Shown here: positions 10,311-30,493 of the stretch, piece by piece
Layout of the letters: each line of letters opens with the position of its first letter
How positions within the stretch are numbered: position 1 is the first letter of the stretch
Source of the DNA: SAR324 cluster bacterium
GTDB lineage: Bacteria; SAR324; XYD2-FULL-50-16; HCM1
Length of the DNA: 64,000 bases
NCBI GenBank assembly: GCA_002995645.1
Contig: PUHO01000007.1
Span: 1,356 to 65,355 of the forward strand
Direction: 5' to 3'
Made by a program: the position numbers and the translations under genes
Notes under the pieces: model-generated
The model's database searches: none
What the model was told of the DNA's origin: nothing
What the model saw: the letters and a program-made list of their open reading frames with translations, nothing else

Positions 10311-10318
10311 TTATTACA

Positions 10319-10347: not shown

Positions 10348-10359
10348 ATAAAAAAATAT

Positions 10360-10436: not shown

Positions 10437-10441
10437 ATTTT

Positions 10442-11240
10442 CTTGCCCTCAAATCCCTTAAATTTTATAAGCATAGCCCTTGCTATGAAAACTATTGCTT
10501 GTTACTCGTAGCCAACTGTGACTATGACAACAAGGCTATAATAAAAATAAAACTTGCCTTAAACTCCTTTAATTTCATAAACATAGCCCATACTATGGCA
10601 ACTATTGCTTATTACTCGTAGCCAACTTTGACTATGACAACAAGGAAATAATAAAAATCTAACTTACCTTAAATCCCTTTTAATTTCAAAAACATAGCCC
10701 TTGCTATGGTAACTACTGCTTGCTACTTGTAGCCAACTTTGACTATGACAACAAGAAAATAATAAAAATAAAACTTGCCTCAAATCCCTTTAATTTCATA
10801 AACATAGCCCCTACTATGACAACTACTGCTTATTACTCGTAGCCAACTTTGACTATGACAACAAAGAAATAATAAAAATAAAACTTGCCTTAAATCCCTT
10901 ATAATTTCATAAGTATAGCCCCTACTATGACAACTATTGCTTGTTACTCTTAGCCAACTTTGACTATGACAACAAAGAAATAATAAAAATATAACTTGCC
11001 TCAAATCCCTTATTATTTCATAAACATAGCCCCTACTATGACAACTATTGCTTGCTACTTGTAGCCAACTTTGACCATGACAACTATTACTCGTAGCTAA
11101 CTTTGGCTATTGCAATAAGGAAAAAACTAGGCTATAATAAAAATATAACTTGCCTTGCTTTCGCAAATCCCTTATAATTTTATAAACATACCCCCTGTTA
11201 TGGTAATTATTACCTGTTATCTTAGTTATATAAAGTAAAT
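10442..11240. repeat. tandem array B: six 110/111-bp units plus a degenerate seventh, filling the gap between the two tRNA genes
   Basis: Unit starts (CTTGCCT/CTTACCT) are at 10442, 10553, 10663, 10774, 10884, 10995 and 11149. Each unit has a CATAGCCCCTACTATG mini-hairpin and two ACTATGACAAC-like direct repeats. The sequence 3' of tRNA copy 2 is a degenerate copy of the same unit. Confidence 0.9.
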
Positions 11241-11242
11241 AG

Positions 11243-11319
11243 GGCGAAGTAGCTCAGCTGGCTGGAGCGTACGACTCATAATCGTAAGGTCGGGAGTTCG
11301 ATCCTCCCCTTCGCTACCA
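11243..11319 (+). tRNA. second tRNA(CAT) copy, 2 nt different from copy 1
   Basis: Same cloverleaf as copy 1. The differences are A to G at the last D-loop position (GCTGGAGC) and C to T in the T loop (TTCGATC). CCA is encoded. Confidence 0.88.
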
Positions 11320-14638: not shown

Positions 14639-15229
14639 ATGCAAAACATAGGTATTGTGTTAGGTGGTGGGAAAAGTTCCCGTATGCAACGAGATAAATT
14701 AACTTTGTCTTGGGATAATACGACGCTTTGGCAACATGCAGAAGCAAAATTGCATAAAGCCAATATGGAAAAGGTATATATAAGCACGCCAAAACAGGTT
14801 ACTTTGCCGCCAAGTGCCAACGTGCTTTACGACGTAACAAAGAACGCCGGTCCTATTGGGGCAGTGCAAGCTGTGTGTGCTAAATACCAAACGCAAGAAG
14901 AGCTGAATATAACGGTGTTACCTGTGGATATGCCTTATATTGAAACGAATTTTCTTTTGTCGTTAAAGAAAAAACTAGACTTGGTAACTGACGGCAATGC
15001 GGTTAGTGTGGAAAATTTTTATTTTCCTTGTATATTACATATGAATAGCCAGTCAAAAAAAAAGATAACTTCGTTTATTGGAAAACCGTGGCATAGCTTT
15101 TTGCAAGCTTTATCTGTTCACTACCTTCCATTGACAAAGCAAGAAGAAGAAAAGTTTTTAAATATAAACCATTTAGCAGATTATATATTTTTATATAAAG
15201 GAAAGGTACATGATAAAATTAATCCTTGA
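14639..15229 (+). CDS. mobA: molybdenum cofactor guanylyltransferase
   Basis: 196 aa. It has the N-terminal GIVLGGGKSSRM nucleotide-binding motif, GPIGA and LPVDMP motifs. It follows moeA by 4 nt. Confidence 0.8.
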   Translation: MQNIGIVLGGGKSSRMQRDKLTLSWDNTTLWQHAEAKLHKANMEKVYISTPKQVTLPPSANVLYDVTKNAGPIGAVQAVCAKYQTQEELNITVLPVDMPYIETNFLLSLKKKLDLVTDGNAVSVENFYFPCILHMNSQSKKKITSFIGKPWHSFLQALSVHYLPLTKQEEEKFLNINHLADYIFLYKGKVHDKINP

Positions 15230-15527
15230 GGAAAATAAAATACGAATACGTTTACTTCCGGAAGATGCGGACGCTTTACTTAACGAGCAAATACTAACAA
15301 GAAAACTATTTTTGCCAAGTGGGCAAGAATTGACAATAGAAGTATCACCATGTAAGTTTCCAAAACCAATAGAAGAAAAAGAAGGGATAATCCGTGTTTT
15401 TGTTGATTTTATGCAACTACAAGAATTACAAGTACCGTCTAAGAAAGGGGTTTTACTCACAAAGACGCCAGTTGATATTTTTATAGAAATAGACATGAAA
15501 CAACGTAAACCGGATCAAGGTAAATAG
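15210..15527 (+). CDS. hypothetical protein between mobA and napD
   Basis: 105 aa with a good SD (AAAGGAAAGG). It overlaps the mobA 3' end by 20 nt and stops 1 nt before napD. I recognise no motif. Confidence 0.45.
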   Translation: MIKLILEENKIRIRLLPEDADALLNEQILTRKLFLPSGQELTIEVSPCKFPKPIEEKEGIIRVFVDFMQLQELQVPSKKGVLLTKTPVDIFIEIDMKQRKPDQGK

Positions 15528-15528
15528 T

Positions 15529-15777
15529 ATGAGTATTATGGGCGCGTTAATCCAAGTAAAAGAAGAAGGAAAAGAACAAATTAGGACTTTTCTAGAAACG
15601 CAAATTAATGTTAAGATACTAGGAGAGAACGATAAACATGAAATGGCTATTGTTATAAACGAACCAAATGAAAATATATTTTTGCAAACAATAGAAAGTA
15701 TAAACGCGCAAGAGCACATTATTGCGTTTAATTACACAGAACATTATAGTGAAGACGCTGTACAAGAAGAATCATGA
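15529..15777 (+). CDS. napD: NapA-specific chaperone NapD
   Basis: 82 aa. FLQTIESINAQEHIIAFNYTEHY parallels E. coli NapD LIQTIESVRNVEGVLAVSLVYHQ. It lies immediately upstream of napA. Confidence 0.7.
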   Translation: MSIMGALIQVKEEGKEQIRTFLETQINVKILGENDKHEMAIVINEPNENIFLQTIESINAQEHIIAFNYTEHYSEDAVQEES

Positions 15778-15809
15778 TCATTAATGTTTATTTTTTAACG
15801 AGATAGAAT

Positions 15810-18317
15810 ATGAAAAGAAGAGAATTTTTAGAAGGGTTAGCAAGTGCTTCTGCTTTAGCCGCATTATCTTCGGGATTGGCTAAACCGGCCATTGCGGCAA
15901 CACAATATAAGAGTCGGTATACCGATAGAAATTTAAGATGGGATAAAGCAGTATGTCGTTTTTGCGGAACCGGTTGCGGCGTTATGGTTGGCGTAAGACG
16001 TAACAAAGTAGTAGCAACAAAAGGCGATGCTAAAAATCCGGTGAATCGTGGTATGACTTGCATTAAAGGCTATTTCTTGTCTCACATTTTATACGGTAAA
16101 GACAGATTGACTTCGCCCTTGCTTCGTATGAAAAACGGGCAATATGACAAGAACGGTGAATTTGAACCGGTTTCATGGGATAAAGCACTAGACTTAATGG
16201 CGGAAAAATTCATTGAAGCCATACAAAAGAAAGGACCTACTTCAGTCGGCATGTTTGGTTCCGGACAATGGACTATTTTTGAAGGATATGCGGCGGTTAA
16301 GTTAATGAAAGCCGGTTTTTTATCTAATAACATTGATCCGAATGCAAGGCATTGTATGGCGTCGGCAGTTGCCGCCTTTGTTCGTACTTTTGGTGCAGAT
16401 GAACCAATGGGGAACTATAAAGATTTTGAAGAAGGTGAAAACTTTGTTCTTTGGGGATCTAATATGGCGGAAATGCACCCTATATTATGGTCAAGAATAG
16501 CGCATACTCGTATGAGTAAACCAAATAGCTCAGTACACGTTCTTTCAACTTATCGCCACCGTTGTTTTGATTTGTCTGATAACGATATTATTTTTAAACC
16601 GCAAAGTGACCTTGTGATTGCTAATTATATTGCTAATTATATTATCAAAAGTGATAAAGTAAATAGCGACTTTATTTCAAATCATACTACGTTTAAAAAA
16701 GTAACTACTGATATAGGTTACGGGTTAAGACCAACGCACTTGCTAGAAAAAAAAGCAAAAAATCCTGGCAACGGCGCTATGCATGATATTGACTTTGAAG
16801 AATATAAAAAACATGTGTCTACTTATACGCTAGAAAAAACGGCGGCTTTTACAGGCGTACCGGAGAAGAGATTACAAAAGCTAGCTGAACTATATGCGGA
16901 TCCAACAAAAAAAGTCGTATCTTTATGGACAATGGGCGTGAATCAACACGTACGCGGAACGTGGATGAATCATTTAATCTATAATTTACATTTATTGACC
17001 GGCAAGATTTCTATGCCCGGGAATAATCCTTTTTCTTTAACAGGACAACCGTCTGCTTGTGGAACGGCAAGGGAAGTAGGCACGTTTGCACATCGCTTGC
17101 CTGCTGATTTAGTTGTAGCAAATCCGGCACATAGAGCTGTTGCCGAAAAGATTTGGAAACTGCCTAAAGGTGCGGTTAATCCTAAAGTAGGCTATCATGC
17201 TGTGTTGCAAAGTCGTATGTTAAAAGACGGCAAGCTAAACGTATATTGGTCCATGTGTAACAACAATATGCAAGCCGCGCCGAACATGGATAAAGAAACC
17301 TACCCTGGTTGGCGTAATCCGGAAGCATTTGTTATTGTATCCGATCCTTATCCTACTGTGTCCGCTATGGCGGCAGATTTGATTTTGCCAACTGCAATGT
17401 GGGTGGAAAAAGAAGGGGCTTACGGTAATGCTGAGAGACGAACTCAATTTTGGTATCAACAAGTTGCACCGAATAAGAACGTTAAGTCCGATTTATGGCA
17501 AATTATATCTTTAGCAAAACGTATTCCTGTTGCTAAAATTTGGTCAAAAGAATTATTAGCGCAAAAGCCGGCGTATCAAGATAAAACCTTATATGATATT
17601 TTATTTGCAAACGGACAAGTGAATAAATACCCACTTTCAAAAGCAAGTAAGCATGCCGGTAATCATGAAGCGGAAGCCTTTGGTTATTATGTACAAAAAG
17701 GATTGTTTGAAGAATATAGACGTTTTCAACAAGAAGGACCTAAAACAGGACATGAACAAGCGCCTTTTGATGAGTATATGAAAGTAAGAGGTCTTGTTTG
17801 GCCATATATTAACGGGAAAGAAGTTTTTTGGCGTTATAGAGAAAATTACGATCCAATGGTGAAAGAAGGGCAAAACCTGGCGTTTTATGGTAATCCAGAT
17901 AAAAAAGCAAGAATTGTGTTTGCACCGTACGAACCGGCAGCAGAAGAACCGAATGCAGAATATCCTATTTGGTTAACTACCGGAAGGGTGCTTGAACATT
18001 GGCATACAGGAAGTATGACTCAACGAGTGCCGGAGCTATTCCAAGCCATGCCAAGAGCTGTTCTTTATCTTAATATTAACGATGCGTTAAAATATAAATT
18101 ACACAGAGGCGAAGCAGTTCGCATTAGCTCTAGACGTGGATCTATTCAAGCAGTTGTGGAGACGCACGGAAGAAATAAAATGCCACAAGGCGTTGCTATG
18201 ATGCCGTTTTTTGATGCTAAACATTTAGTGAATAAACTAGTGTTAGACGCAACGGACCCTATTTCTAAAGAAACGGATTTTAAGAAAGTAGCTATTAAAA
18301 TAGAAAAAATAAATTAA
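15810..18317 (+). CDS. napA: periplasmic nitrate reductase catalytic subunit
   Basis: 835 aa. It has a twin-arginine signal ([30 protein letters not shown]) and an N-terminal 4Fe-4S motif CRFCGTGCG...C. Mo-bisMGD enzyme blocks run throughout ([35 protein letters not shown]). Confidence 0.97.
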
Positions 18318-18332
18318 CTATATAGGATTATT

Positions 18333-18758
18333 ATGAAATATACAATTATGTTAATAGCAAGTGCGCTATGTTTTTCTAGTAGTAGCCTTTTTGCTTCGCA
18401 ACCTATGTCTTTGCGAGGTAATACGAAAATTACAGAAGAAAAAGAAGCAAAAGTCGTTTTTATGGGAGTGCAAAGCGACAAAGATAAATTTCGCCGTACT
18501 TTGCACCAAGCGCCTATGATTCCTCATCCCATAGATCACTATGTTATAACAAAAGCTAAAAATAGTTGTTTAGTTTGTCATGCAAAAGCAAAAAGTCAAG
18601 TGTCACCGGAAGAGATTAAAAAAGGTGCCGTGTTTTTTTCAGATACCCATTTGTTGAATCGTGATAACGAGCAAAAAGTGTTATTAGATAATCGTTGGTA
18701 TTTTTGCAATCAATGCCATGCAATACAACATAATACTGAAAAATTACAAAAAAAATAA
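18333..18758 (+). CDS. napB: periplasmic nitrate reductase dihaem cytochrome c subunit
   Basis: 141 aa with a signal peptide and two CxxCH motifs (CLVCH, CNQCH). It lies directly after napA. Confidence 0.85.
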   Translation: MKYTIMLIASALCFSSSSLFASQPMSLRGNTKITEEKEAKVVFMGVQSDKDKFRRTLHQAPMIPHPIDHYVITKAKNSCLVCHAKAKSQVSPEEIKKGAVFFSDTHLLNRDNEQKVLLDNRWYFCNQCHAIQHNTEKLQKK

Positions 18759-18779
18759 TTATATTTTAAGGTAGTACAA

Positions 18780-19349
18780 ATGGGAAGGAAAAAAAATATA
18801 AAAAAGACTATAATCATTACTCTTGGAATAGGCGTGTTTCTTAGTATTATTGGCTTTGTGATTTTAAAGCAAAGTATTGATTACACAAATAAAACCGAGT
18901 ATTGTTTAAGTTGCCATGAACCGCTACGAGATAGCTATCTATCTTCGTCACATGGGCAAAATAAAACGGGAATACAAGTACAATGTGTAAGTTGTCATGC
19001 TCCGTTAATGGAAAACGATATAGAAAATTTATCACATAAATTCTTAGCGTTAAAACGACCGGTAGCCAAGTTTTTTGGTGCATTAAAGACGGAAGACGAC
19101 TTTAATAACAAAAGATTAGAAATGGCAACAAACGTTTGGCAATGGATGAAGAAGAGCCCGGAAGAAGGGTGCCGATCTTGTCATAGTTTTAAACATATGG
19201 ATTTAACTAAGCAAGAGTCAAGGGCAGTGCAACACCATTTGAAAGCAGCAAAGAATGGACAGACTTGTATTGCATGCCATGCCGGCATTGTTCACGGTAT
19301 GATGGAAGGCGGCGTGAAAAAACATCACGAATTATTCTGGTCGCATTAA
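18780..19349 (+). CDS. napC: membrane-anchored tetrahaem cytochrome c, NapC/NirT family
   Basis: 189 aa with an N-terminal TM helix and four CxxCH motifs (CLSCH, CVSCH, CRSCH, CIACH). Confidence 0.9.
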   Translation: MGRKKNIKKTIIITLGIGVFLSIIGFVILKQSIDYTNKTEYCLSCHEPLRDSYLSSSHGQNKTGIQVQCVSCHAPLMENDIENLSHKFLALKRPVAKFFGALKTEDDFNNKRLEMATNVWQWMKKSPEEGCRSCHSFKHMDLTKQESRAVQHHLKAAKNGQTCIACHAGIVHGMMEGGVKKHHELFWSH

Positions 19350-19364
19350 GAAGAGAGAAAGCCT

Positions 19365-19895
19365 TTGTTTTTACGAAACAAACGACGTAACGGTGCGAGT
19401 TTACGACGTTTTTTAACAGGTGCGGCTTTCTTTCCAATAAGCGCGCTTCCTTGGCGTAAAGAGGCAGAGGTTTTTCTTGATCATTGTAAAAAGAAGCAAT
19501 GTTATCAATGTATTGACCTTTGCCCTGAAAAAGTGCTTGTGCCAACGGTGCAAGGTTTGCCGGCTATGGACTTTAGCAAGAACGGTTGTAGCTTTTGCGG
19601 CAAATGCGCCACGGTTTGCCCGGAGAATTTATTTTTTCCTATAACAACCAAGCCGTGGGATTTAGTAGTTAGCTTTGTGAAAGAAGATTGCGTTGCTTTT
19701 GCTAACGTACATTGCCGTAGTTGTGAAGAGGTTTGCGATCAAGACGCGATTAGCTTTATTGCGCAAGATGACGGTAGTCCAAGCAAGCCGTCTATAGATT
19801 TGGCAAAGTGTAACGGTTGCGGTAAGTGTGTTGCCCCTTGTATGACAGGTGCGTTGCGCGTTACGTCTGCAGATAAACTTTTTTTTCTTCAGTAG
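19365..19895 (+). CDS. napF: ferredoxin-type iron-sulfur protein NapF
   Basis: 176 aa with a TTG start in the ORF track. It has an N-terminal RRFLTG motif and Cys clusters CYQCIDLCP, CSFCGKCATVCP, CRSCEEVCD and CNGCGKCVAPC, collinear with E. coli NapF. Confidence 0.8.
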   Translation: MFLRNKRRNGASLRRFLTGAAFFPISALPWRKEAEVFLDHCKKKQCYQCIDLCPEKVLVPTVQGLPAMDFSKNGCSFCGKCATVCPENLFFPITTKPWDLVVSFVKEDCVAFANVHCRSCEEVCDQDAISFIAQDDGSPSKPSIDLAKCNGCGKCVAPCMTGALRVTSADKLFFLQ

Positions 19896-20995
19896 TAGCC
19901 TGTACTAGCTTTGCTTACTTCTCTCGATCTGCCTTGCTCTTCTTTGCCCCGCCCGCATTAGCTTTGCTTATTTCCTTTATTCCACCTTGTCTTTTTCTTT
20001 CCTTACTTTGATTACTTTGCTTGCTATGCTCGTATTCGCCCTGCTTGTTTCTTTTTCTTTCTTGTTTTGCTTTTTCCACTTGCTTCGCCTTGCCGTTTTC
20101 TTGAATTGCTCGCACTCGCCTTGCCGTTGTATTACTTCGTTTGTATTAGCATATTTCCCTTCTAACTTCGCTTTTTCCCTTGCTCTGCCTTATCTTTTCT
20201 TTGCCCCGCCCGCATTAACTTTGTTCCCTTGCTCTTCCTTACCCTGCCTTATCTTTTCTTTTCCCCGCCCGCACTAGCTTTGTTCTTTTGCTCTTCCTTG
20301 CCCCGCCCGCATTAACTTTGTTCTTTTGCCACGCCTTGCCGTTTTCTTGCATTGCCCGCATTAGTTTTGCTTACTTCTCTCGATCTTCCTTGCTCTTTCT
20401 TGCTACGCCCGCATTAGCTTTATATTCTTGCCTCGTCTTTTTCTTTCATTCTAAAGAGTTATTAAAAGTATAAAAAATCTATGGTGAATATGTAGAAGTT
20501 TTGCTTGCCTCGTTCGAACTAGTTTTTCCCCCTTGCTCTGCTCCGCTTTTTTTCTTCCTTACTCTTCCTTGCTCTGCCCGCATTAGCTTTCATCTCTGCT
20601 AACTTCGCTTCTGCCTTACTCTGCATTGCCCGTAGTCGCCCTGCTTACTTCTCTCGATCTGCCTTGCTCTTCTTTGCTCCGCCCGCACTAGTTTTTCCCC
20701 CTTGCTCTGCTCCGCTTTTTTTCTTCCTTACTCTTCCTTTCCCCGCCCGCATCAGCTTTCATCTCTGCTAACTTCGCTTTTTTCCTTACTCTGCATTGCC
20801 CGTAGTCGCCCTGCTTACTTCTCTCGATCTGCCTTGCTCTTCTTTGCTCCGCCCGCACTAGTTTTTTCCCCTTGCTCTGCTCCGCTTTTTTTCTTCCTTA
20901 CTCTTCCTTGCTCTGCCCGCACTAGCTTTTATCTCTGCTAACTTCGCTTTTCCCCCTTGCTATGCCCGCATTAGCTTTGTTCTTTTCTCTCATTT
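19896..20995. repeat. 1.1-kb polypyrimidine-rich (+ strand) repeat block with ~12 copies of GCCCGCA(T/C)TA(G/A)(C/T)TTT and a ~170-bp higher-order repeat
   Basis: Motif starts are at 19951, 20208, 20267, 20305, 20354, 20407, 20576, 20681, 20745, 20851, 20915 and 20964. The variant GCCCGTAGTCGCC occurs at 20628 and 20798. The 170-bp period is seen from 20576/20745/20915, 20681/20851 and 20628/20798. In three 60-nt lines I counted, the + strand is 78-85% C+T. A short AT-rich interruption lies at ~20450-20510. Confidence 0.9.
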
Positions 20996-21162
20996 GTTTT
21001 TTTACATAATGTAATCTATACAAATTGACAACAATAGGTAACAGATTACTAAGGCTAAGCATACATAAAAAATGTCACAACTATATACAATAATATAAGC
21101 ACTGTATCAATAAAGAATTGACAGCTTCTTATAAACAATAATAAATAAACTGTTAACTATTA

Positions 21163-21191
21163 TTGACAAGCGATTCGTATTATTGTATGAT
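21163..21191 (+). promoter_or_regulatory. candidate sigma70 promoter of the phage-like head operon (TTGACA-17-TATGAT)
   Basis: TTGACA at 21163-21168, 17-bp spacer, TATGAT at 21186-21191, 37 bp upstream of the ATG at 21228. Two further ATTGACA motifs lie at ~21024 and ~21114. TATTATTG is present at 21158 and 21178, with its inverse CAATAATA at 21136. Confidence 0.5.
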
Positions 21192-21227
21192 TAATTATAG
21201 AAAGGGTGACAAACAAAATAAGGAAAT

Positions 21228-23033
21228 ATGAATAGATCATTAACAATAGAAAGGTTATCTAAACATAATAAACAGCAAATAATTAACTATTTACGTGCCA
21301 ATAAAAGTTATCAAGAAATAGCTGAGATATGCCATAAAACAGGAATGCCTTTAAAAGTAGGAGTCGCAGCGTTACGTAACTACGATACAAAATACAAAAT
21401 ATCTAAACAAGGTAAGGAACGAGCTAAGAAAATACAAGAAAATTTGACTAACGTAAAGCAAAAGCAACCGATAGAAGGTAACTTGCCTACATCGTTAAAA
21501 ATAGAAAAATTATCTAAACATAATAAACAGCAAATAATTAACTATTTACGTGCCAATAAAAGTTATCAAGAAATAGCTGAGATATGCCATAAAACAGGAA
21601 TGCCATTAAAAGTAGGAGTCGCAGCGTTACGTAATTACGATACAAAATACAAAATATCTAAACAAGGCAAGGAATGGGCTAAGAAAATAGAAGAGAATTT
21701 GCCCAAGGTAAAGCAAAAGCAACCGATAGAAGGGATTTATAGTAACTTGCCTACATCGTTAAAAATAGAAAAAATACCTAAACATGATAGGCAGCAAATA
21801 ATTAACTATTTACGTAACAATAAAAGTTATCAAGAAATAGCTGAGATATGCCATAAAACAGGAATGCCATTAAAAGTAGGAGTCGCAGCGTTACGTAACT
21901 ACGATACAAAATACAAAATATCTAAACACGGCAAGGAACGAGCTAAGCAAATAGAAGAAAATTTGCCCAAGGTAAAGCAAAAGCAACCTATAGAAGGTAA
22001 CTTGCCTACGTCGTTAAAAATAGAAAAATTATCTAAACATGATAGACAGAAAATAATTAACTATTTACGTGCCAATAAAAGTTATCAAGAAATAGCTGAG
22101 ATAGGCAATAAAGCAGGAATGCCTTTAAAAGTAGGGGTCGCAGCGTTACGTAACTACGATACAAAATACAAAATATCTAAGCAAGGCAAGGAACGGGCTA
22201 AGAAAATAGAAGAAAATTTGACTAACGTAAAGCAAAAGCAACCGATAGAAGGGATTTATAGTAACTTGCCTACGTCGTTAAAAATAGAAAAATTACCTAA
22301 ACATAATAAACAGCAAATAATTAACTATTTACGTACCAATAAAAGTTATCAAGAAATAGCTGAGAGATGCCATAAAACAGGAATGCCCTTAAAAGTAGGG
22401 GTCGCAGCGTTACGTAACTACGATACAAAATACAAAATATCTAAACGAGCTAAGCAAATAGAAGAAAATTTGCCCAAGGTAAAGCAAAAGCAACCTATAG
22501 AAGGGATTTATAGTAACTTGCCTACGTCGTTAAAAATAGAAAAATTACCTAAACATGATAGGCAGCAAATAATTAACTATTTACGTGCCAATAAAAATTA
22601 TCAAGAAATAGCTGAGATATGCCATAAAACAGGAATGCCATTAAAAGTAGGAGTCGCGGCGTTACGTAACTACGATACAAAATACAAAATATCTAAACAA
22701 GGCAAGGAACGAGCTAAGAAAATAGAAGAAAATAATCGTCTTTGCTTGCCCAAGGTAAAGCAAAAGCAACCTATAGAAGGGATTTATAGTAACTTGCATC
22801 TATCGTTAATACAATTGATTTCACAACTAGAGGCAAAAGTACAATCGCCAAAAAGCAAGAAAGATCAGTTAAACGAAGTCAACATTTTATATAAAGTATC
22901 GCAAATGTTAAAACTACTTTCTTCAAATCAAGAAATCATAGGAACCGCCACCTCGGAAGAGACAGAGCAAAAACGGAAAGTAAATAGTAAGCATTTAAGG
23001 AAAGCAATCACGTCTATATACGGGAAAATATAG
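21228..23033 (+). CDS. tandem-repeat protein in the small-terminase position: six ~86-aa HTH-like modules plus a unique C-terminal tail
   Basis: 601 aa. Module starts are at nt 21228, 21480, 21744, 21999, 22263 and 22515 (periods 252/264/255/264/252/276, all multiples of 3). The unique tail starts at 22791. Module consensus is NLPTSLKIEKLxKHxxQQIINYLRANKSYQEIAEICHKTGMPLKVGVAALRNYDTKYKISKQGKERAKKIEENLxxVKQKQPIEG. As I recall it, this resembles the N-terminal HTH of Mu gp27/DUF3486 small terminases (SKIDxLPxxxxxxIxxLLxxGxSxxEIxxxLxxxGxxVSxSALxRY). It lies directly upstream of terL. Confidence 0.6.
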   Translation: MNRSLTIERLSKHNKQQIINYLRANKSYQEIAEICHKTGMPLKVGVAALRNYDTKYKISKQGKERAKKIQENLTNVKQKQPIEGNLPTSLKIEKLSKHNKQQIINYLRANKSYQEIAEICHKTGMPLKVGVAALRNYDTKYKISKQGKEWAKKIEENLPKVKQKQPIEGIYSNLPTSLKIEKIPKHDRQQIINYLRNNKSYQEIAEICHKTGMPLKVGVAALRNYDTKYKISKHGKERAKQIEENLPKVKQKQPIEGNLPTSLKIEKLSKHDRQKIINYLRANKSYQEIAEIGNKAGMPLKVGVAALRNYDTKYKISKQGKERAKKIEENLTNVKQKQPIEGIYSNLPTSLKIEKLPKHNKQQIINYLRTNKSYQEIAERCHKTGMPLKVGVAALRNYDTKYKISKRAKQIEENLPKVKQKQPIEGIYSNLPTSLKIEKLPKHDRQQIINYLRANKNYQEIAEICHKTGMPLKVGVAALRNYDTKYKISKQGKERAKKIEENNRLCLPKVKQKQPIEGIYSNLHLSLIQLISQLEAKVQSPKSKKDQLNEVNILYKVSQMLKLLSSNQEIIGTATSEETEQKRKVNSKHLRKAITSIYGKI

Positions 23034-23058
23034 GAAAGAAAAAAATAAGGAGGAGCCT

Positions 23059-24354
23059 ATGAAGCCACTTTTACCATTATACGACTACCAAAAGAATTGG
23101 CTTACAGATAAAAGCCGTTTCAAAATCGGTATGTTTGCAAGGCAAACAGGCAAAACGTTTATAACAACACTAGAAATTGTCTTAGCCTGTTTGCAAGCAG
23201 AAATAGAAGGAAAAGCAACAAAATGGTTAATCATATCAAGGTCTTTACGGCAAGCAAAAGAGGCGATGCAAGACGTGTATCAACATGTGCAAGTAATGGA
23301 TACTTTTTATAAAGCCTATCAATGGCATATTCCAACAGGAGAAAAAAATATAATGGAGTGGCAACTTCCCCATGGAAGCCGTGTTATTGCTTTGCCTGCT
23401 AATGCAGATACAATCAGAGGCTATTCAAGTAACGTGTTGCTAGATGAATTTGCTTTTCACCAAGATCTAGCAAGTATCTGGTCGGCTGTTTTTCCTATTA
23501 TATCATCAGGTAAACGTATGCTTATTGTCTCTACGCCAAACGGAACGAATAATTATTTTTATGAAATAATGACAAATAAACAAAACCTGTGGAGCCGGCA
23601 TATTGTGGATATTTACCAAGCAAAGCAAGGCGGCTTGCCAAGAGATATTAAAGAAATGAAAAAGGCAGTGCTAGATTCGTACGTATGGCAACAAGAATAC
23701 GAATTGAAATGGCAACAAGAAGGGGAAAGCTGGATTGCAAAAGAATTGATTAAGTTAGTGCAAGATCCGCTTGCCGGCGTGCCTACGGCGTATGAAGGGA
23801 ACGAGTGTTTTATTGGCGTAGATATAGCGAGAAGGAACGATTTTTTTGTTATTGTTGTTTTAGAAAAATGCCAAGGCGTTTTGTGGTGTCGTGAGATTAT
23901 AGCAATGCAAAATACTTCTTTTCAAGAACAGGCAGATTTACTTTCAAATTGTATTTATAAATATAACGTTGTTAGTGTGTGTATGGATCAAACCGGCATG
24001 GGAGAAATGCCGGTGGAAGAAGCAAAAAAGAAGCATGGCAATATGATTCAAGGAATCCTAATGACACAAAAGAAAAAATACGATCTTGCCGTTATAGGAA
24101 AAATGCATTTTGAGCAAGAAACAAGCAAGCTACCGTGCGATAGGATTCTTGAAGAAGATATACAGTCTATTAGAAGGAAAGTAGCGTTAAACGGAGAGGT
24201 ACAACTTTATACAGAGCGAACAAAACAAGGGCACGGAGATAGAGCATGGGCGCTATTGTTAGCAACACAAGCAGCGTCGGGAAGGGAAGAAATCACATAT
24301 AATTATTATACTGTAGATTCGGGATCTCTATTTAATCAAAACAAATTTATGTAA
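23059..24354 (+). CDS. terminase large subunit (Mu gp28-like)
   Basis: 431 aa with a strong SD (AAGGAGG). It has Walker A-like ARQTGKTF, Walker B LLDEFAFH and a C-terminal nuclease-type HGDRAWAL motif. Confidence 0.88.
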   Translation: MKPLLPLYDYQKNWLTDKSRFKIGMFARQTGKTFITTLEIVLACLQAEIEGKATKWLIISRSLRQAKEAMQDVYQHVQVMDTFYKAYQWHIPTGEKNIMEWQLPHGSRVIALPANADTIRGYSSNVLLDEFAFHQDLASIWSAVFPIISSGKRMLIVSTPNGTNNYFYEIMTNKQNLWSRHIVDIYQAKQGGLPRDIKEMKKAVLDSYVWQQEYELKWQQEGESWIAKELIKLVQDPLAGVPTAYEGNECFIGVDIARRNDFFVIVVLEKCQGVLWCREIIAMQNTSFQEQADLLSNCIYKYNVVSVCMDQTGMGEMPVEEAKKKHGNMIQGILMTQKKKYDLAVIGKMHFEQETSKLPCDRILEEDIQSIRRKVALNGEVQLYTERTKQGHGDRAWALLLATQAASGREEITYNYYTVDSGSLFNQNKFM

Positions 24355-24696
24355 AAGAAACGTAGGCAACTTTATACAGAGCGAACAAAACAAGGGCACA
24401 GAGATAGAGCAAGGGCGCTATTGTTAGCAACACAAGCGGCGGCGGTAAGGGAAGAAATCACATATAATTATTATACTGTAGATTCGGGATCTCTATTTAA
24501 TCAAAACAAATTTATTTAAAAGAAACGTAGGCAACTTTATACAGAACGAACAAAACAAGGGCACGGAGATAGAGCATGGGCGCTATTGTTAGCAACACAA
24601 GCGGCGGCGGGAAGGGAAGAAATCACATATAATTACTATACTGTAGATTCGGGGTCTCTATTTAATCAAAACAAATTTATTTAAAAGAAACGTATG
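24202..24696 (+). repeat. exact-period 3 x 165-bp tandem triplication of the terL 3' end plus the terL-portal junction
   Basis: The units are 24202-24366, 24367-24531 and 24532-24696. Copies 2 and 3 still read QLYTERTKQGH(R/G)DRA(R/W)ALLLATQAAA..EEITYNYYTVDSGSLFNQNKFI-stop in the terL frame. The position of the portal ATG (24694) reads AGG in the two upstream copies. Confidence 0.95.
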
Positions 24697-25875
24697 CAAC
24701 CTATTTTTAAGAATAAACCGGTCATGGAACAAGAAATTTTTACAAATTGTATTGTAAAAAACAAACTAGAAGAATTGACCTGTACAAAGCAAAAATTAAC
24801 GCCAGCAAGATTAAAGCGTATTTTAGAAGAGTCAGACAGAGGCAATAACGAGCAAATGCTTGACCTTGCAAAAGAAATGGAAGAGCAAGAACCGCACTAT
24901 GCGGGCGTCTTAGCAGTACGCAAAAGAGCGATTACTTCCCTTCCTATGCGTATAGACAAAATAAACGAGTTCCCACAAGAAATGGGCGATTTACTTAAAC
25001 AAGTAATAAACGATCCTTGTTTTGGTCATATGTTAGAAGACGCACTAGACGCGCTAGGAAAAGGGTATAGTGTGATTGAAATTATATGGCAAAGAAAAAA
25101 AGGTTTTTGGATACCGAAAGAATACGTCTGGAAAGATCAAAAGCTATTTCAAATTGATATGAACAGTCGTAACAAAGTGTATTTTATAGGTAAAGAAAAA
25201 AAGCAGCTAATCCCGCAATATAAAGCTATTGTGCATTTACATAAATTGAAAAGCGAAGTGACTGCAAACGGCGGATTAGCAAGGTTAGTTTCGTTTAACT
25301 ATATGTGTAAAAACTTTACGCTACAAAGTTGGATGCGTTTTCTTGAACTATTTGGGCAACCGCTTAGGTTGGGAAAATATGCAAAAGGAGCAAAAGAACA
25401 AGATATAGCGGTGTTGAAAAAAGCAGTTTCCTATATAGGAAGCGATGCGGCGGCAGTAATACCGGAAAATATGCAAATTGAATTTGTCCAATCACTACGA
25501 AGTGGGAACGCAGAAATATTTGAAGATCTGGCAAGGTGGCTAGATGAACAAATATCAAAAGCCGTGTTAGGGCAAACCATGACCAGCGATAGCGGAAGCA
25601 GCTTTTCCCAAGCAAAAGTGCACAATGAAGTAAGGCAAGATATTTGTCGTGCTGACACAATGCATTTAGCAAGGACACTTAACAAAGACCTAATTAAAGC
25701 GATTGTAGATATTAATTTTGGAGAACAAACAATATATCCGCAATTTTGTTTTGCATTACCAACGAAAATAGACGCGCAAAGCGTGTTGGAAAGCGTTAAA
25801 ACGCTTATTCCACTAGGCTTGAACGTGGATCTTGATGCGGTTGCGAAAATGCTTAACATTCCTGTTAGTAAATAA
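24694..25875 (+). CDS. portal protein (Mu gp29-like, DUF935 type)
   Basis: 393 aa. LTPARLKRILEESDRGNNEQMLDLAKEMEEQEPHYAGVLAVRKRAI matches the conserved N-terminal DUF935 pattern as I recall it. It sits after terL. It is shorter than Mu gp29 (~510 aa). Confidence 0.8.
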   Translation: MQPIFKNKPVMEQEIFTNCIVKNKLEELTCTKQKLTPARLKRILEESDRGNNEQMLDLAKEMEEQEPHYAGVLAVRKRAITSLPMRIDKINEFPQEMGDLLKQVINDPCFGHMLEDALDALGKGYSVIEIIWQRKKGFWIPKEYVWKDQKLFQIDMNSRNKVYFIGKEKKQLIPQYKAIVHLHKLKSEVTANGGLARLVSFNYMCKNFTLQSWMRFLELFGQPLRLGKYAKGAKEQDIAVLKKAVSYIGSDAAAVIPENMQIEFVQSLRSGNAEIFEDLARWLDEQISKAVLGQTMTSDSGSSFSQAKVHNEVRQDICRADTMHLARTLNKDLIKAIVDINFGEQTIYPQFCFALPTKIDAQSVLESVKTLIPLGLNVDLDAVAKMLNIPVSK

Positions 25876-25893
25876 ATAAACCTAAGGAGGTAT

Positions 25894-26034
25894 ATGATAA
25901 TTATAATTATAGCATATTTAGTCATGTGTTGTTTGTATATTTGTAGCGGTTATATGGCATACAAAAACGGCAGCGTTTGGAATCTAAATAAATTTATCCG
26001 TTTCGTACGGCATTGGTTAACACATAGAAAATAG
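25894..26034 (+). CDS. small hydrophobic peptide (46 aa), not in the ORF track
   Basis: Own translation: MIIIIIAYLVMCCLYICSGYMAYKNGSVWNLNKFIRFVRHWLTHRK. A consensus SD AAGGAGG lies 5 nt upstream of the ATG. It has one TM segment followed by a basic tail, which is holin- or membrane-peptide-like. Confidence 0.45.
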   Translation: MIIIIIAYLVMCCLYICSGYMAYKNGSVWNLNKFIRFVRHWLTHRK

Positions 26035-26041
26035 GGGAATT

Positions 26042-26362
26042 ATGGAAGGACTATGGCAAGAATTACTACGTATACGTATAGGTTGGATAGTATACGGCAT
26101 GATTGGCGGCGTAATGGCTTTAATTGTGTTTATTACAAAAGCCGTTACAAATAACAAGAGAAAAGAAAGGAAAGAATTGGAAAAGTTTATACAAAAATTA
26201 GTGGTCCTAGAAAGGAAGCTCTACGGCTTACCAACAAAACAGGCAATGAACGGTTTATTTTCTCGTTTAGCCAGTTTAGAAGCGACTTTGAAAACACAAT
26301 CGCAAAATTTGGATATCATACAAAAGGGAATACTTAACTTAAGCTTAGAAAAAAGGGGGTAA
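26042..26362 (+). CDS. single-pass membrane protein with coiled-coil C-terminus
   Basis: 106 aa. It has a TM helix (GWIVYGMIGGVMALIVFITKAV) followed by charged helical sequence. The gene has an SD (AGGGGA). Confidence 0.5.
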   Translation: MEGLWQELLRIRIGWIVYGMIGGVMALIVFITKAVTNNKRKERKELEKFIQKLVVLERKLYGLPTKQAMNGLFSRLASLEATLKTQSQNLDIIQKGILNLSLEKRG

Positions 26363-26363
26363 A

Positions 26364-26552
26364 ATGGGAAGTGTAACAAACAAGAAAACAAGCAGAAGAA
26401 TACTATTAAAAGCACAAGAAGAATATAAGAAAAGAGGCGGTATTGTTAAAAAATTACCACCTTCACCGGAATGGAATCTAGAAAGGTCGTCTTACTATTC
26501 TTGGTTAGTGATCGCTAAAACAAGAATTGATTTAGCCGAGTTTGCCTATTAA
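26364..26552 (+). CDS. small basic hypothetical protein
   Basis: 62 aa with an SD (AAGGGGG). It is translationally coupled: its start lies 1 nt after the previous stop. Confidence 0.45.
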   Translation: MGSVTNKKTSRRILLKAQEEYKKRGGIVKKLPPSPEWNLERSSYYSWLVIAKTRIDLAEFAY

Positions 26553-26564
26553 GTAAAATCGCAA

Positions 26565-27299
26565 TTAAAGTAAGACTGTTTTACAAATCGCACGACCAAG
26601 AACTTGGAGTTGATCAAACGATTCTCTAGGGATAAAAATCTTTTCATATTCTTGGTTCGCACTGATTAAAGTAAGCCCGTCGCTACGAAGTTGCGTTGAT
26701 TTACAATAGATTCGATTGTCAAAGTATAGAATATAAATACAACCGTCTTCTAGGTTTTTATCTGCTGTGTTAATTAATACTTTATCCCCGGGGCTAAGTA
26801 TAGGCGACATAGAATTACCTTGAATAGTAATAACATGCGCCGACGCAGTATAGATCCCGAATTCTTCAAGAAAACGCCTAGGAACGGCAAGACGCTTTTC
26901 CGTTTCATCAGAAGCAAGGAAATTGCCGGTGCCGGCAGAAGCGTATACGTCGTCGCGAATAGTGATATACGCCATATCTTGCGTATTAGAAGAAGGAAGC
27001 AAGCCTTCGTCCGGCGGTTCGAGTGTTACCACGTCCATCATAGTGTCGTGATATTTCATAGAGGTTGATTCAAGGTAATCAAGACCGGTATATTCTTTTT
27101 CTTTAGCAGGGAGTTTGCCAGTAGCAAGCCATTGTAAAGAAACGTTAGCAACGTTGGCAATACGAACGGCTTTGTCAATAGACGGCATAGATCCGTGTAA
27201 GTATTTGTGTAATGTAGTAGAGGTTAAATTACATTCTTTTGCAAATTGACGTAAACTTTTGTCGCCAATAGCAATTTTTAATCTTTCAGAAAAACTCAT
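26565..27299 (-). CDS. CI/LexA-like repressor: N-terminal XRE-type HTH plus C-terminal S24 autopeptidase
   Basis: The HTH is SLRQFAKECNLTSTTLHKYLHG..PSIDKAVRIANVANVSLQWLATG. The S24 motifs are GNSMSP (Ser nucleophile) and YCKSTQL...L.SAN (Lys). The start is trimmed to the ATG at 27299 (MSFSERLK); the ORF-track start at 27308 is TTG. Confidence 0.85.
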   Translation of the reverse strand: MSFSERLKIAIGDKSLRQFAKECNLTSTTLHKYLHGSMPSIDKAVRIANVANVSLQWLATGKLPAKEKEYTGLDYLESTSMKYHDTMMDVVTLEPPDEGLLPSSNTQDMAYITIRDDVYASAGTGNFLASDETEKRLAVPRRFLEEFGIYTASAHVITIQGNSMSPILSPGDKVLINTADKNLEDGCIYILYFDNRIYCKSTQLRSDGLTLISANQEYEKIFIPRESFDQLQVLGRAICKTVLL

Positions 27300-27507
27300 A
27301 ATGAACAAAAAGAAGGAGGTCTATTAAATAAGGACTAGGTAACTCACGTTCGCGTTGGTACTAATAAAACGAAAATGAAGGCATGTAATTCTATGATTAG
27401 CAAAACTCTATTTTATATAGATCAAGAAGGATTGTAAAGGAAATATATAGGAACAAGAATAGACGCGGTTAGTATAAAAATTAAATTGTAAAAACAAAGA
27501 AAAGCAT

Positions 27508-27807
27508 ATGCAAAAAGAAGAAACGATTATAAACGTTATTATACGAGAATGGGGAGATTTGTCAAATTTCTTGCTATGGGCAGGGTATAAAGAAAACAAC
27601 AAGTATATTCTAGCTGATTTTATAGACACAAACAAAAACGCAAAAGGAAAAGTAAGTTGTTTAAAATGGGCAATTTGGCAAACTTTCAAAGGTGAAATGA
27701 AAGCAAAGAAAACAGCTTGCCCACCTGTTGCGAGCTATATGCTTCCTATGGCGGAAAGTTGGCAATATAAAGTGGAGCAATATTTATTACAAGAAAGCAA
27801 ACTATAA
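27508..27807 (+). CDS. hypothetical protein divergent from the repressor (Ner/Cro position)
   Basis: 99 aa. It is the first gene of the second + strand block and has no recognisable HTH. Confidence 0.4.
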   Translation: MQKEETIINVIIREWGDLSNFLLWAGYKENNKYILADFIDTNKNAKGKVSCLKWAIWQTFKGEMKAKKTACPPVASYMLPMAESWQYKVEQYLLQESKL

Positions 27808-27816
27808 AGGGGAAAA

Positions 27817-28443
27817 ATGGAAGAACAAGATAAACGCAATATATTAAACGAATATATGACGAACGGGCAAGGATACTTAATTCCAAAAGAACAGGTTTCT
27901 CAAATCGATCAACTAAGGGATCAATTAATAGAGGAACTCTTTACAAAAGCAAAGCAATATAAACAGACAATAGAAGAAATCAAACAAACAACATTAAAGG
28001 AAATAGAAAGCTTTTTGTTCTTATGTGCAGGCGAGTATAAAGTAAAACTAGGCGGGAAAAAAGGTAACGTTAGCTTAACTAGTTTTAACGGGTTAAAGCG
28101 AGTGCAAATTAAAACGCAAGCTAAAATTGCTTTTAATGAAGGTGCTAAGATGGCAAAAGAGCTTATAGACGAATGTATACAAGAATGGTCTTTTGGTGCG
28201 GATAGTAAAATAGTAGCTTTAATTGAACATGCCTTTCAAACAGATAAGCAAGGTAACATGAATATTACAAGAGTGCTGAGTTTGCGTAAGCTAGCTATAA
28301 AAGAAATCAAATGGCAAAAAGCAATGGAATTGTTAACAGACGCCATGCAGGTAATCGGTAGTAAAAAGTATATTAATTTTTACACAAGAGAAACGCACGA
28401 AGACGGCTGGGAAATAATGAATCTAGATTGGGCAAGAATATAG
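27817..28443 (+). CDS. DUF3164-family protein (Mu-like early/semi-essential region protein)
   Basis: 208 aa. GGKKGNVSLTSFNG..V......I.FNE....AKELIDECI.EW........ALIEHAF..DKQGN.N..RVLSLR.L.I....W..AM......M.V.GSKKYINFY.RE matches the DUF3164 consensus as I recall it. Confidence 0.75.
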   Translation: MEEQDKRNILNEYMTNGQGYLIPKEQVSQIDQLRDQLIEELFTKAKQYKQTIEEIKQTTLKEIESFLFLCAGEYKVKLGGKKGNVSLTSFNGLKRVQIKTQAKIAFNEGAKMAKELIDECIQEWSFGADSKIVALIEHAFQTDKQGNMNITRVLSLRKLAIKEIKWQKAMELLTDAMQVIGSKKYINFYTRETHEDGWEIMNLDWARI

Positions 28444-28462
28444 TCAAGTAAAAACAAAGGAT

Positions 28463-29302
28463 ATGAATATGAATCAAAAAGAAGCAACAAGACAAGTTAA
28501 AGAAATAATGTGGGTACAAATTCTACCAAAAGGTAAAGAAATACAAGGGAAAGACGGACGTACGTTTATTAACGAAGGAAGCGATAAACTAGCAAGTCAG
28601 TTTAATCAAGAAAAAAGAGAAATCCCCATTGATATAGCTCATGCCGGCGAAGTCTCTGATCTAGGCAAAGAACCGCCGGCTATTGGTTGGATTTGCAAAA
28701 TGGAAGCAAGAGAAGAAGAGCTTTGGGCACAAATACAATGGAGGAAAGAAGGCTTAGCACTCTTGCAAGACAAGCAATATAAATATATCTCGCCGGCGTT
28801 AGTTGTGAAAGACGGAAAGATTAAAGAAATAAGTAGTATTGGGATAACAAACCACCCTAATTTAATTATGAAGTCGCTTAACTCAAAAAGCAAAGACAAA
28901 CAAGACGTTTTATTTCTTGCAAAAGCAATGGAATTGCAGTTTGAGACAAAAGAAAAACAAAACGATCTAGAAATAGCATTGCAAAGAGCAAGAAAAGCGG
29001 AAACCGAACTGGAAGCATTCAAAGCAAAGGAGGAAACAAAAGTTATTGAAAATATGGTGGAAGACGCCATTGAAAAAGGAAAGATCTTACCTATTTCAAA
29101 AGCAATATATATGAATTTATGTAAAACAAAAGAAGGGCGAATCGAGTTTGAAGAAACAATTAAAAAAATGCCTTCTTTATATTTAGAACAAGAAATATTA
29201 ATTAAACAAGAAGAAAGCGACGTTGATTTTAACAAGCAAGAAAAAGATATGCTAGCTACGTTACAAATTTCAACAAAGCAAATAAAAGAACTAGGTAAGT
29301 AA
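28463..29302 (+). CDS. head maturation protease/scaffold (Mu gpI-like)
   Basis: 279 aa. W.QILPKG......GR.F......IPIDIAH......PPAIGWI..ME.R...LWAQIQW...G......K.YKYISPAL......I..I..IGITNHPNL fits the Mu-like prophage I protein family. The C-terminal half is coiled-coil and scaffold-like. Confidence 0.85.
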   Translation: MNMNQKEATRQVKEIMWVQILPKGKEIQGKDGRTFINEGSDKLASQFNQEKREIPIDIAHAGEVSDLGKEPPAIGWICKMEAREEELWAQIQWRKEGLALLQDKQYKYISPALVVKDGKIKEISSIGITNHPNLIMKSLNSKSKDKQDVLFLAKAMELQFETKEKQNDLEIALQRARKAETELEAFKAKEETKVIENMVEDAIEKGKILPISKAIYMNLCKTKEGRIEFEETIKKMPSLYLEQEILIKQEESDVDFNKQEKDMLATLQISTKQIKELGK

Positions 29303-29336
29303 ATAAGTATAAATACATAAGAAAGGAAATATCAAT

Positions 29337-30245
29337 ATGTTACAACAAAGAACAATAGACACGTTGGAAAAAGCATTTAAATCTATTTTTAAAGAAACAC
29401 TAACTATACAAAAAACAGACTGGTCAAAAATAGCGTCGTTAGTGCAATCTTCTTCTTTAAGCTCGTCTTATCATTGGGCGAATCGCTTTCCTGTTATGAG
29501 TGAATGGATAAACGAAAGAAAGAAAACAAATTCAATGGCGAAACCGTTTGCCATAGAAAATAAGAAATATGAATCCCATATTGAAGTCGATACGGCGGAT
29601 ATTGAAGATAATAATATAGGAAGCTATCGTATTTTAATTGAAGAAATGGCGGCGGCAGTAGAAAGAAACAAAGATAAGTATATTTTTAAGTTACTTAAAG
29701 ACGGTTTTACTAATACCGGCTATGACGGCGTACCTTTTTTCAGTGATAACCACCAAATAACGGCAAACATAGACGGTACGGGCGCAAAAATAAAAGTTTC
29801 TAATATACTCAATCCTTTAGTCTCTATTAAACCGGCTTGGTTTGTTCTAGATGCGTCAAGAGCGTTAAAACCTTTTATCTTGCAAGAAAGAACAAATCCT
29901 TCTTTTCATGCGTTAACAAATAGCGATTCAAATTACCTTTTTGAATTTGACCGTATTCCGTTTGGCGTACGGTGGAGAGGAAGCTTCGGCTACGGTGCTT
30001 ATCAAAGTATTATTGCTTGCCGTGATGCGTTAACAGGCGCTAATTTTGGTAAAGCAGTTAATCAGCTGTTACAAATGAAAATGAACGGAAACGAATATTT
30101 TGGATTTAAACCGACTCATTTAATTGTTCCGCCAAGCTTACGTTCCGACGCGCAAACGATTATTAAAAAAACGGCGTTAACCAGCGGGGACAGTAATCCT
30201 AATTATAATGCAGTAGATATTATTGTTTCACCGTGGCTTGCCTAA
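29337..30245 (+). CDS. major head subunit (Mu gpT-like)
   Basis: 302 aa. W..IA..V.SSS.S..Y.W...FP.MSEWI.ER......A.PF.IENKKYE..I.VD..DIEDNNIG.Y ... YDGVPFFSDNH fits the Mu gpT family. It follows the protease. Confidence 0.88.
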   Translation: MLQQRTIDTLEKAFKSIFKETLTIQKTDWSKIASLVQSSSLSSSYHWANRFPVMSEWINERKKTNSMAKPFAIENKKYESHIEVDTADIEDNNIGSYRILIEEMAAAVERNKDKYIFKLLKDGFTNTGYDGVPFFSDNHQITANIDGTGAKIKVSNILNPLVSIKPAWFVLDASRALKPFILQERTNPSFHALTNSDSNYLFEFDRIPFGVRWRGSFGYGAYQSIIACRDALTGANFGKAVNQLLQMKMNGNEYFGFKPTHLIVPPSLRSDAQTIIKKTALTSGDSNPNYNAVDIIVSPWLA

Positions 30246-30265
30246 TAAAAGCAAAAGGGAATCTA

Positions 30266-30493
30266 ATGGAAAAAACAATAGATAAAACAGAAACAAAGGA
30301 AGCAAAGCTAACGTACGTTACGGCAAAATTAAGCGATGAGTATAAACTAAAATTTCCTTTTAATCATTCATATAAAACAAAAAGGTATATATGGCAATAC
30401 GAACCGCGTAGCTACTTTTGTACAAACGAAGAGAAAATAGCAATAACAAAGAATAGATTTTTAACGATCATTAAAAGAAAGGTAAAGCTATGA
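30266..30493 (+). CDS. hypothetical head-module protein
   Basis: The ORF-track frame 30233..30493 is trimmed to the ATG at 30266 (MEKTIDK), because the upstream part overlaps the capsid gene end. The product is 75 aa. Confidence 0.4.
   Translation: MEKTIDKTETKEAKLTYVTAKLSDEYKLKFPFNHSYKTKRYIWQYEPRSYFCTNEEKIAITKNRFLTIIKRKVKL

Follow-up and report, generated by a model that had tools for sequence, protein, structure and literature searches.

Results

Composition and boundaries of the pyrimidine-rich block

We analyzed a stretch of 64,000 nucleotides from a SAR324 cluster bacterium (contig PUHO01000007.1; hereafter, the window), in which a 1.1-kb pyrimidine-rich block (19896–20995) separates a nap operon from a cluster of Mu-like phage genes. 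The origin of this block by repeat duplication, and its possible role as a site of Rho-dependent termination, are the subject of this report. The features at and around the block are as follows.

19365–19895, + strand: napF, the last gene of a napD?-A-B-C-F operon (TIGR00402, 101.9 bits against a cutoff of 102.2)
19896–20445, + strand: left half of the block, 78% pyrimidine, with CT-rich units that are older and more diverged; tandem 59-bp and 38-bp units at 20178–20340
20446–20517, no strand assigned: AT-rich island of 72 bp (47% pyrimidine, 29% GC) that splits the pyrimidine-rich block in two
20518–20995, + strand: right half of the block, 80% pyrimidine, with a young 170-bp higher-order repeat and a terminal unit
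20996–21227, + strand: AT-rich spacer (25% GC) with the predicted promoter of the phage-like cluster, TTGACA-17-TATGAT, at 21163–21191
21228–23033, + strand: gene for a 601-aa orphan protein of six tandem helix-turn-helix (HTH)-like units (84–88 aa each) and a helical tail, in the position of Mu gp27 (small terminase, TerS)

The + strand of the block contains 486 T, 358 C, 144 G and 112 A residues, that is, 76.7% C+T, whereas the + strand of the whole window is 45.9% pyrimidine. In the remaining 1100-nt windows of the 64 kb, the C+T fraction ranged from 0.345 to 0.567 (mean, 0.453; standard deviation, 0.047), so that the block lies about 6.7 standard deviations out and is unique within the window. 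The C+T fraction in 200-nt windows of the block peaked at 0.82. The block begins 1 nt beyond the end of napF (stop codon TAG, 19893–19895), and the first copy of its main motif, a variant one, starts at 19898; its end at 20995 is separated by a gap of 232 bp from the next gene, which starts at 21228. The AT-rich island contains just one weak promoter-like match (9/12), on the minus strand at 20496–20467. Among the tandem arrays of the window, the block alone shows strong strand asymmetry.

Repeat structure of the block

The block is composed of short modules that recur in the same orientation.

Module A, GCCCGCAYTAGCTTT (also written CGCCCGCATTAGCTTTG), + strand: starts at 19898, 19951, 20208, 20267, 20305, 20354, 20407, 20576, 20681, 20745, 20851, 20915 and 20964; span, 19898–20978
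Module A variants, GCCCGTAGTCGCCCT, + strand: 20628 and 20798
Module B, CCTTGCTCT, + strand, 19932–20914: 11 exact copies, a frequency equal to that of module A in the k-mer spectrum
Further modules from the k-mer spectrum, + strand: GCTTACTTCTCTCGATCT (four copies), CTGCTAACTTCGCT (three copies) and GCCTTGCCGTT (three copies)

Module A, a 15-nt motif, was found in the window in 6 exact copies, in 12 copies with at most one mismatch and in 13 copies with at most two. Every copy lies on the + strand inside the block and none elsewhere in the 64 kb; the chance expectation was 0.29, and 13 copies were reached in none of 100 shuffles. A 17-nt version of the motif recovered the identical 13 sites. 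Its GCCCGCA core is present in 12 copies, or in 14 when written GCCCGYA, which takes in the GCCCGTAGTCGCCCT variants. The motif is asymmetric and not palindromic, and its copies are spaced 38–64 bp apart within clusters. A composite module, in which two motifs flank GCTTACTTCTCTCGATCTGCCTTGCTCTTCTTTGC with a spacing of 53 bp, recurs at 19898, 20354, 20628 and 20798. No inverted repeats were found anywhere in the block.

Tandem Repeats Finder (TRF) detected periods of 38, 59 and 170 in the block with 85–94% matches, and the direct copies were confirmed as repeat families D1–D6. The longest period, 170, was represented by 2.6 copies with 94% matches at 20518–20951. Copies of families D1 and D2, on the left, are 60–80% identical, whereas those of D3, on the right, are 95% identical. 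In the oldest stretch (19966–20200) the motif has decayed, to GCTCGTATTCGCCCT at 20027 and GCTCGCACTCGCCTT at 20107. Between the two full 170-bp copies (20609–20778 and 20779–20948) we counted seven transitions and two transversions. The ratio of transitions to transversions was thus 7:2 in the young repeat, and it was about 2 among the diverged families, against 0.88 predicted from composition alone. Because the copies diverge mostly by transitions, the pyrimidine bias persists.

The preliminary description of this DNA had reported a block of 80–85% C+T that starts right after the napF stop codon and ends about 230 bp before the HTH gene, a 15-nt motif recurring 12 times plus variants, and about 2.5 copies of a 170-bp repeat in the right half. 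Recounting bore out the block, its motif and its repeat, with 13 motif copies at up to two mismatches confined to the block, 2.6 repeat copies and agreeing coordinates (19895 for the stop codon and 232 bp for the gap); the strong pyrimidine bias also stood, although the percentage had been set slightly high.

These results indicated that the block is a mosaic satellite, built up as segments of variable length were duplicated again and again. As in minisatellites, its copies are direct and head to tail, their period and identity can be measured, and the sequence is non-coding. We do not think that the motif is selected as such; it is simply the most-copied piece of the unit. An array of clustered regularly interspaced short palindromic repeats (CRISPR) was considered and rejected, since the segments between the motifs are themselves repeated and vary in length.

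Other tandem arrays in the window

TRF found about eight tandem arrays in the window, which together cover 6.9 kb, or 10.8% of its length. This proportion is unusually high for a bacterium. Two arrays besides the block lie within 4 kb of it, namely a six-fold repeat inside the next gene and a triplication of the 3' end of the large terminase (TerL) gene. Apart from the repeat in the next gene, the arrays outside the block include the following.

9184–11084: two complex arrays around a tRNA-Met pair, with periods of 153 and 111 bp (88–91%)
24202–24700, + strand: TerL 3'-end triplication, 165 bp in three copies (96%), each comprising the last 150 nt of TerL, the stop codon and 12 nt
43720–44387: thrC 5'-end duplication, 334 bp in two copies (95%)
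59600–61190: complex array of 1.2–1.6 kb (1.2-kb array at 59.9–61.1 kb), with units of about 92–208 bp

The presence of many arrays in one window indicates that local tandem duplication is a general habit of this genome. The TerL triplication is recent and without obvious use, and merely fills the gap between TerL and the portal gene; here the same process of local duplication has acted on a sequence for which extra copies serve no purpose. The two tRNA-Met(CAT) genes, at 10360–10436 and 11243–11319, are identical, and the tRNA gene was apparently duplicated along with the array.

Properties of the block RNA downstream of the nap operon

Upstream of napF, the operon encodes NapA (1400 bits), NapB and NapC. 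No terminator-like hairpin was found after the napF stop codon, and the nap transcript is therefore expected to continue into the block. The + strand RNA of the block contains 33% C and 13% G. Its predicted folding energy was -4 to -15 kcal/mol per 150 nt, in comparison with -30 to -44 kcal/mol in the nap genes, and it was less stable than 100 of 100 dinucleotide shuffles (z, +2.29). The median C/G ratio in 78-nt windows was 2.4 in the block and 0.82 in the whole window.

The Rho utilization (RUT) criteria of RhoTermPredict are a 78-nt window with C/G > 1 and a C residue every 11–13 nt (PMC6407284). By these criteria, 54% of the windows in the block qualified, and 50% did so with C/G > 2; outside the block, only 0.12% of + strand windows reached the latter level. 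The block contains the only extended RUT-type stretches on the + strand of the window. The weak folding of this RNA, judged by its minimum free energy (MFE), and its position directly beyond the napF stop codon indicate that the nascent transcript would be both unstructured and free of ribosomes, as in rut sites. C-rich, unstructured RNA is what Rho loads on, and for that reason termination of nap transcription is the role that we would most readily assign to the block.

The six-HTH protein and the Mu-like cluster

The gene that follows the block stands at the left end of a Mu-like cluster with these features.

21085, 21135 and 21178: perfect inverted repeats ACAATAATA/TATTATTGT, which flank or overlap the predicted promoter; candidate operators for a CI-like repressor
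21228–41053: Mu-like cluster of head and tail genes, bordered by the nap operon on the left and aroA on the right
23059–24354, + strand: TerL, FluMu gp28-like (Terminase_6N/6C; best homologues about 50% identical)

The six HTH-like units of the 601-aa protein are 82–89% identical to one another and share an invariant GMPLKVGVAALRNYDTKYKISK core; at the DNA level, the repeat has a period of about 255–264 bp (89%). The frame is intact over 1.8 kb. Synonymous divergence (dS) between units was 0.04–0.22, and the pooled ratio of nonsynonymous to synonymous divergence (dN/dS) was 0.30; a value of 0.30 between diverged units indicates that the modules are under purifying selection. A search of 5.8 billion sequences for homologues of the protein returned only itself, and among 1.8 billion representatives the sole non-self match was an unrelated protein of five IS3-type HTH repeats. 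Single units matched no Pfam or PHROG family. The whole-protein scores for phrog_426 ('TerS') and HTH families are therefore sums over six repeats. PF11985 was matched neither by the whole protein nor by single units, and a sequence search of the PDB gave nothing below E = 0.34. The AlphaFold model was poor, with a predicted local distance difference test (pLDDT) score of 58.7, and Foldseek found nothing at E ≤ 0.001 when the model was compared with viral structures.

In seven of seven related loci, a Phage_Mu_Gp27 gene (about 170–190 aa) lies directly upstream of TerL. The 601-aa gene, which ends at 23033, occupies the same slot before the TerL start at 23059. With a home-made hidden Markov model (HMM) of seven gp27 sequences, one unit and the tail aligned colinearly at 7–8 bits, a score reached by 1–7 of 1000 shuffles (p about 0.001–0.007); hhalign gave E = 0.08. 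On the basis of this synteny and the weak colinear HMM match, we infer with moderate confidence that the protein is a very diverged gp27-type small terminase whose N-terminal HTH module has been amplified.

The cluster encodes TerL, a Mu portal protein, protease I, the major head protein gpT, Gp36, sheath and tube proteins, a DNA-circularisation protein, baseplate proteins, and a tail fibre with its assembly protein. Neither transposase A/B nor a Mu F (gp30) gene was found in it, and no lysis family was matched, some short open reading frames (ORFs) having been left unscanned. An insertion between the portal/DUF2730 genes and the protease gene carries genes for a CI/S24 repressor (26565–27308, minus strand) and DUF3164; compared with its counterparts in relatives, the portal protein lacks about 100 aa, and DUF2730 is displaced. 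Only 3 nt separate the right end of the cluster from the aroA stop codon. The cluster is a prophage in decay or else a domesticated element that produces particles, similar to gene transfer agents (GTAs) or tailocins. In the expected tape-measure position there is an ORF of 306 aa, short for a tape measure and without a family match, whose start (33752–34002) is the sole strongly purine-rich stretch of the window (27–28% pyrimidine, + strand).

Comparison with related loci

The motif pair was absent from 185,579 GTDB species genomes and from IMG/VR, and in JGI metagenomes it gave one chance match, in an unrelated high-GC repeat. No pyrimidine-rich block was present in 10 fetched loci, eight of which surround related Mu-like terminases; the highest pyrimidine fraction in their 500-nt windows was 0.60, as against 0.80 here, in a comparison that is weak because the relatives are at most 51% identical in TerL. 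Locus searches based on TerL yielded one locus, at 47% identity, in a metagenome-assembled genome (MAG) of Acinetobacter and none in IMG/VR. Relatives at ≥90% identity were lacking for all proteins tested, among them NapA and TerL. The source lineage seems to be poorly sampled. Elsewhere in the window, a CfpA-like cytoplasmic filament protein (57056–58891, + strand; NF040882, 452 bits against a cutoff of 500) has its best homologues, at 37–39% identity, in MAGs of SAR324, Lambdaproteobacteria and Deltaproteobacteria.

Alternative explanations for the block

The strand asymmetry of purines and pyrimidines across 1.1 kb could point to a homopurine-homopyrimidine tract that forms triplex DNA (H-DNA) and serves as a structural insulator or replication barrier. 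H-DNA is associated with an uninterrupted homopurine-homopyrimidine mirror repeat of at least about 15–20 bp. In the block, however, purines break the tract every 4–15 nt. Pure pyrimidine runs reach 16 nt at most, a length matched elsewhere in the window, and the longest of them lacks mirror symmetry; the sole mirror repeat (11-nt arms, 20320–20349) is interrupted by purines. With so short a longest run, we consider H-DNA very improbable; of the H-DNA insulator proposed in the preliminary description, the triplex part thus falls away, whereas an insulating role is plausible through Rho loading. Less credible than H-DNA is a purine-rich RNA from the minus strand that would sequester CsrA (through GGA), as had also been proposed, or Hfq (through ARN repeats) or ribosomes (through Shine-Dalgarno-like AAGGAAG). 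The minus strand does carry 28 GGA and 12 AAGGA, but it has no CAGGA[UAC]G sites, no hairpins that present GGA and no structure beyond that of shuffles (MFE z, -0.53). Moreover, the spacer at 20996–21227 has no minus-strand promoter-like site and matches elsewhere reach 9/12 at most, no terminator is present, and the transcript would run antisense into napF. No Rfam family was detected in 19000–22000 at E ≤ 1, and at gathering thresholds the whole window gave two tRNA-Met genes only, away from the block. A third proposal, a decayed or frameshifted minus-strand gene for a low-complexity protein rich in K, E, R and G, could draw on the resemblance of the purine-rich minus strand to the coding strands of this genome and on conceptual peptides, such as KANAGRARKSKEEKK, that recur. 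Nevertheless, stop codons occur in all six frames of the block. None of the unit lengths (38, 53, 59, 64 and 170) is a multiple of 3, so that the reading frame shifts from one copy to the next, also in those that give the recurring 'KANAG...' peptides, and the period-3 Fourier signal is 0.6–1.0, compared with 2.6–8.0 in the napF, TerL, portal and HTH genes. BLASTX of the block against all ORFs of the window gave composition-driven matches to antisense ORFs only and no paralogue, and BLASTN against the rest of the window gave nothing significant. The earlier impression that the ORFs called here look non-coding was therefore right, and we find a decayed gene even harder to credit than a sponge RNA. 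The least credible of these explanations is an iteron-type replication origin with an AT-rich region and a neighbouring DNA-binding 'Rep' protein. The direct repeats do adjoin 232 bp of AT-rich DNA (25% GC) as well as a gene for a DNA-binding protein, but their spacing is an irregular 38–64 bp instead of about 22 bp, no DnaA box with at most one mismatch was found in 15015–23604, and the protein has no Rep-like match and stands in the TerS position.

The main rival to Rho-dependent termination, possible although we think it unlikely, is one that the preliminary description had also raised: the block would serve the six-HTH protein as a recognition array, with every HTH module attached to a single asymmetric direct repeat, and the whole would act as an expanded packaging (pac) site or as an assembly or regulatory site. 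Such an array would stand at the left border of the Mu-like cluster, and it would not exclude Rho-dependent termination. In phage Mu, pac lies at the left end of the genome, the place where the block now sits. The 13–15 motif copies share one orientation, are not palindromic, occur only here in the 64 kb and lie 250–1330 bp upstream of the gene. The gene itself encodes six near-identical HTH units with an invariant core, a dN/dS of 0.30 and an intact 1.8-kb frame; it occupies the Phage_Mu_Gp27 slot of all seven relatives with a weak colinear gp27 HMM match, and the block, 232 bp upstream, lies beside this gp27-position gene as pac sites lie in or beside terS. A precedent is the pac region of SPP1, whose direct repeats span both the promoters and the beginning of terS (PMC4737164). 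On the other side, the HTH domain of SF6/SPP1 binds DNA non-specifically (PMC4737164), a single unit of the present protein has no Pfam or PHROG match, and its structure model is poor (pLDDT 58.7) and without a fold match. The motif is no more frequent than CCTTGCTCT, it decays in the oldest units, and substitutions fall inside it in the young copies. Linkers of about 35 residues would have far to reach between motifs 38–64 bp apart, and known pac regions measure a few hundred bp, not 1.1 kb. Nothing similar is present at the eight fetched loci around related Mu-like terminases. Tandem arrays are, finally, common in this genome, and the adjacency of block and gene may therefore be a coincidence. 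A more specific form of this idea, to which we give somewhat less credence still, is that block and gene are a co-expanded pair: a single-chain, six-HTH TerS derived from gp27 would read at least 13 same-orientation 15-nt repeats, and the array would be the site at which a Mu-like element, lacking a transposase and possibly domesticated, initiates packaging (or assembles its particles).

Discussion

The array described above originated by duplication, as its direct copies show. We consider the chances about even that this lineage-specific, non-coding repeat array ends nap transcription via Rho, which is the reading we prefer. A CT-rich seed of about 40–60 nt expanded through repeated local tandem duplication, leaving older copies (60–80% alike) on the left and the young 170-bp repeat (94–95%) on the right, and the same process gave rise to at least seven other arrays in the window. 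The nap transcript would then enter 1.1 kb of untranslated, nearly structureless RNA that is rich in C and poor in G, on which Rho could load. The resulting Rho-dependent termination, which we infer from the sequence, would shield the separately promoted, repressor-controlled Mu-like cluster from nap read-through.

Several points weigh against Rho-dependent termination and a purely duplicative history of the block. Neither a consensus GGN8YG pause element nor a hairpin occurs in 19896–21230, so that no recognisable pause site follows within the expected distance of about 150 nt. No Rho gene was seen in the 64-kb window, although one could lie elsewhere in the genome. A rut site needs about 80 nt, and termination cannot therefore explain a size of 1.1 kb; nor does it account for the asymmetry that sets this array apart from the others. 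A purely neutral process does not predict that the block should be the only strongly asymmetric array, and six selected, near-identical HTH modules next door ought to read directly repeated DNA. The motif core also had a majority identity of 0.92, as against 0.54–0.70 in the flanks; this comparison is biased by anchoring on the motif, and we therefore drew no conclusion on selection from it.

The block illustrates the extent to which a bacterial genome can tolerate the expansion of repeats, and it is a candidate Rho loading zone of textbook strength that is made wholly of repeats. Its significance is modest unless the six-HTH protein binds it. If it does, the pair would exemplify, in nature, the joint amplification of a DNA-binding module and of the site that it recognises, and would represent a new architecture of pac recognition in a Mu-like element without transposition, that is, a single-chain alternative to the oligomeric ring of TerS HTH domains.

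Compared with known systems, the neighbouring protein shares with Mu gp27 (PF11985, the TerS of Mu-like phages) its slot upstream of a gp28-like TerL and a weak colinear similarity in the N-terminal HTH and the C-terminal part. It differs in its length (601 aa, not about 180), in the sixfold N-terminal module and in the lack of a Pfam-level match. Known pac regions (pacL boxes a–c of SPP1/SF6, the pac hexamers of P1 and the R sites of lambda cosB) likewise consist of direct repeats upstream of a gene in the small-terminase position and its promoter; these have a few copies over 100–300 bp, whereas the block has 13–15 over 1.1 kb, and the Mu-like relatives of this locus have no such array. Known TerS proteins form a ring of single-HTH subunits, whereas the candidate is one chain with six HTH modules that would bind the array.

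With intergenic minisatellites and other variable number tandem repeat (VNTR)-type loci of bacteria, the block has in common non-coding, head-to-tail units of tens of bp, age layers, a young higher-order repeat, a lineage-specific sequence and the occurrence of several such loci in one genome. It departs from them in its extreme strand asymmetry (77–80% pyrimidine over 1.1 kb), in the mosaic of modules and in having no single clean period. With rut regions it shares an untranslated RNA that is rich in C and poor in G, with regularly spaced C residues and almost no structure, following an operon without a terminator. The block, known here from its nucleotide sequence, is more than 10 times longer than a rut region needs to be, is built of repeats and has no recognisable pause element. 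It is thus an orphan sequence of a known type, an intergenic repeat array combined with a rut-like C-rich region.

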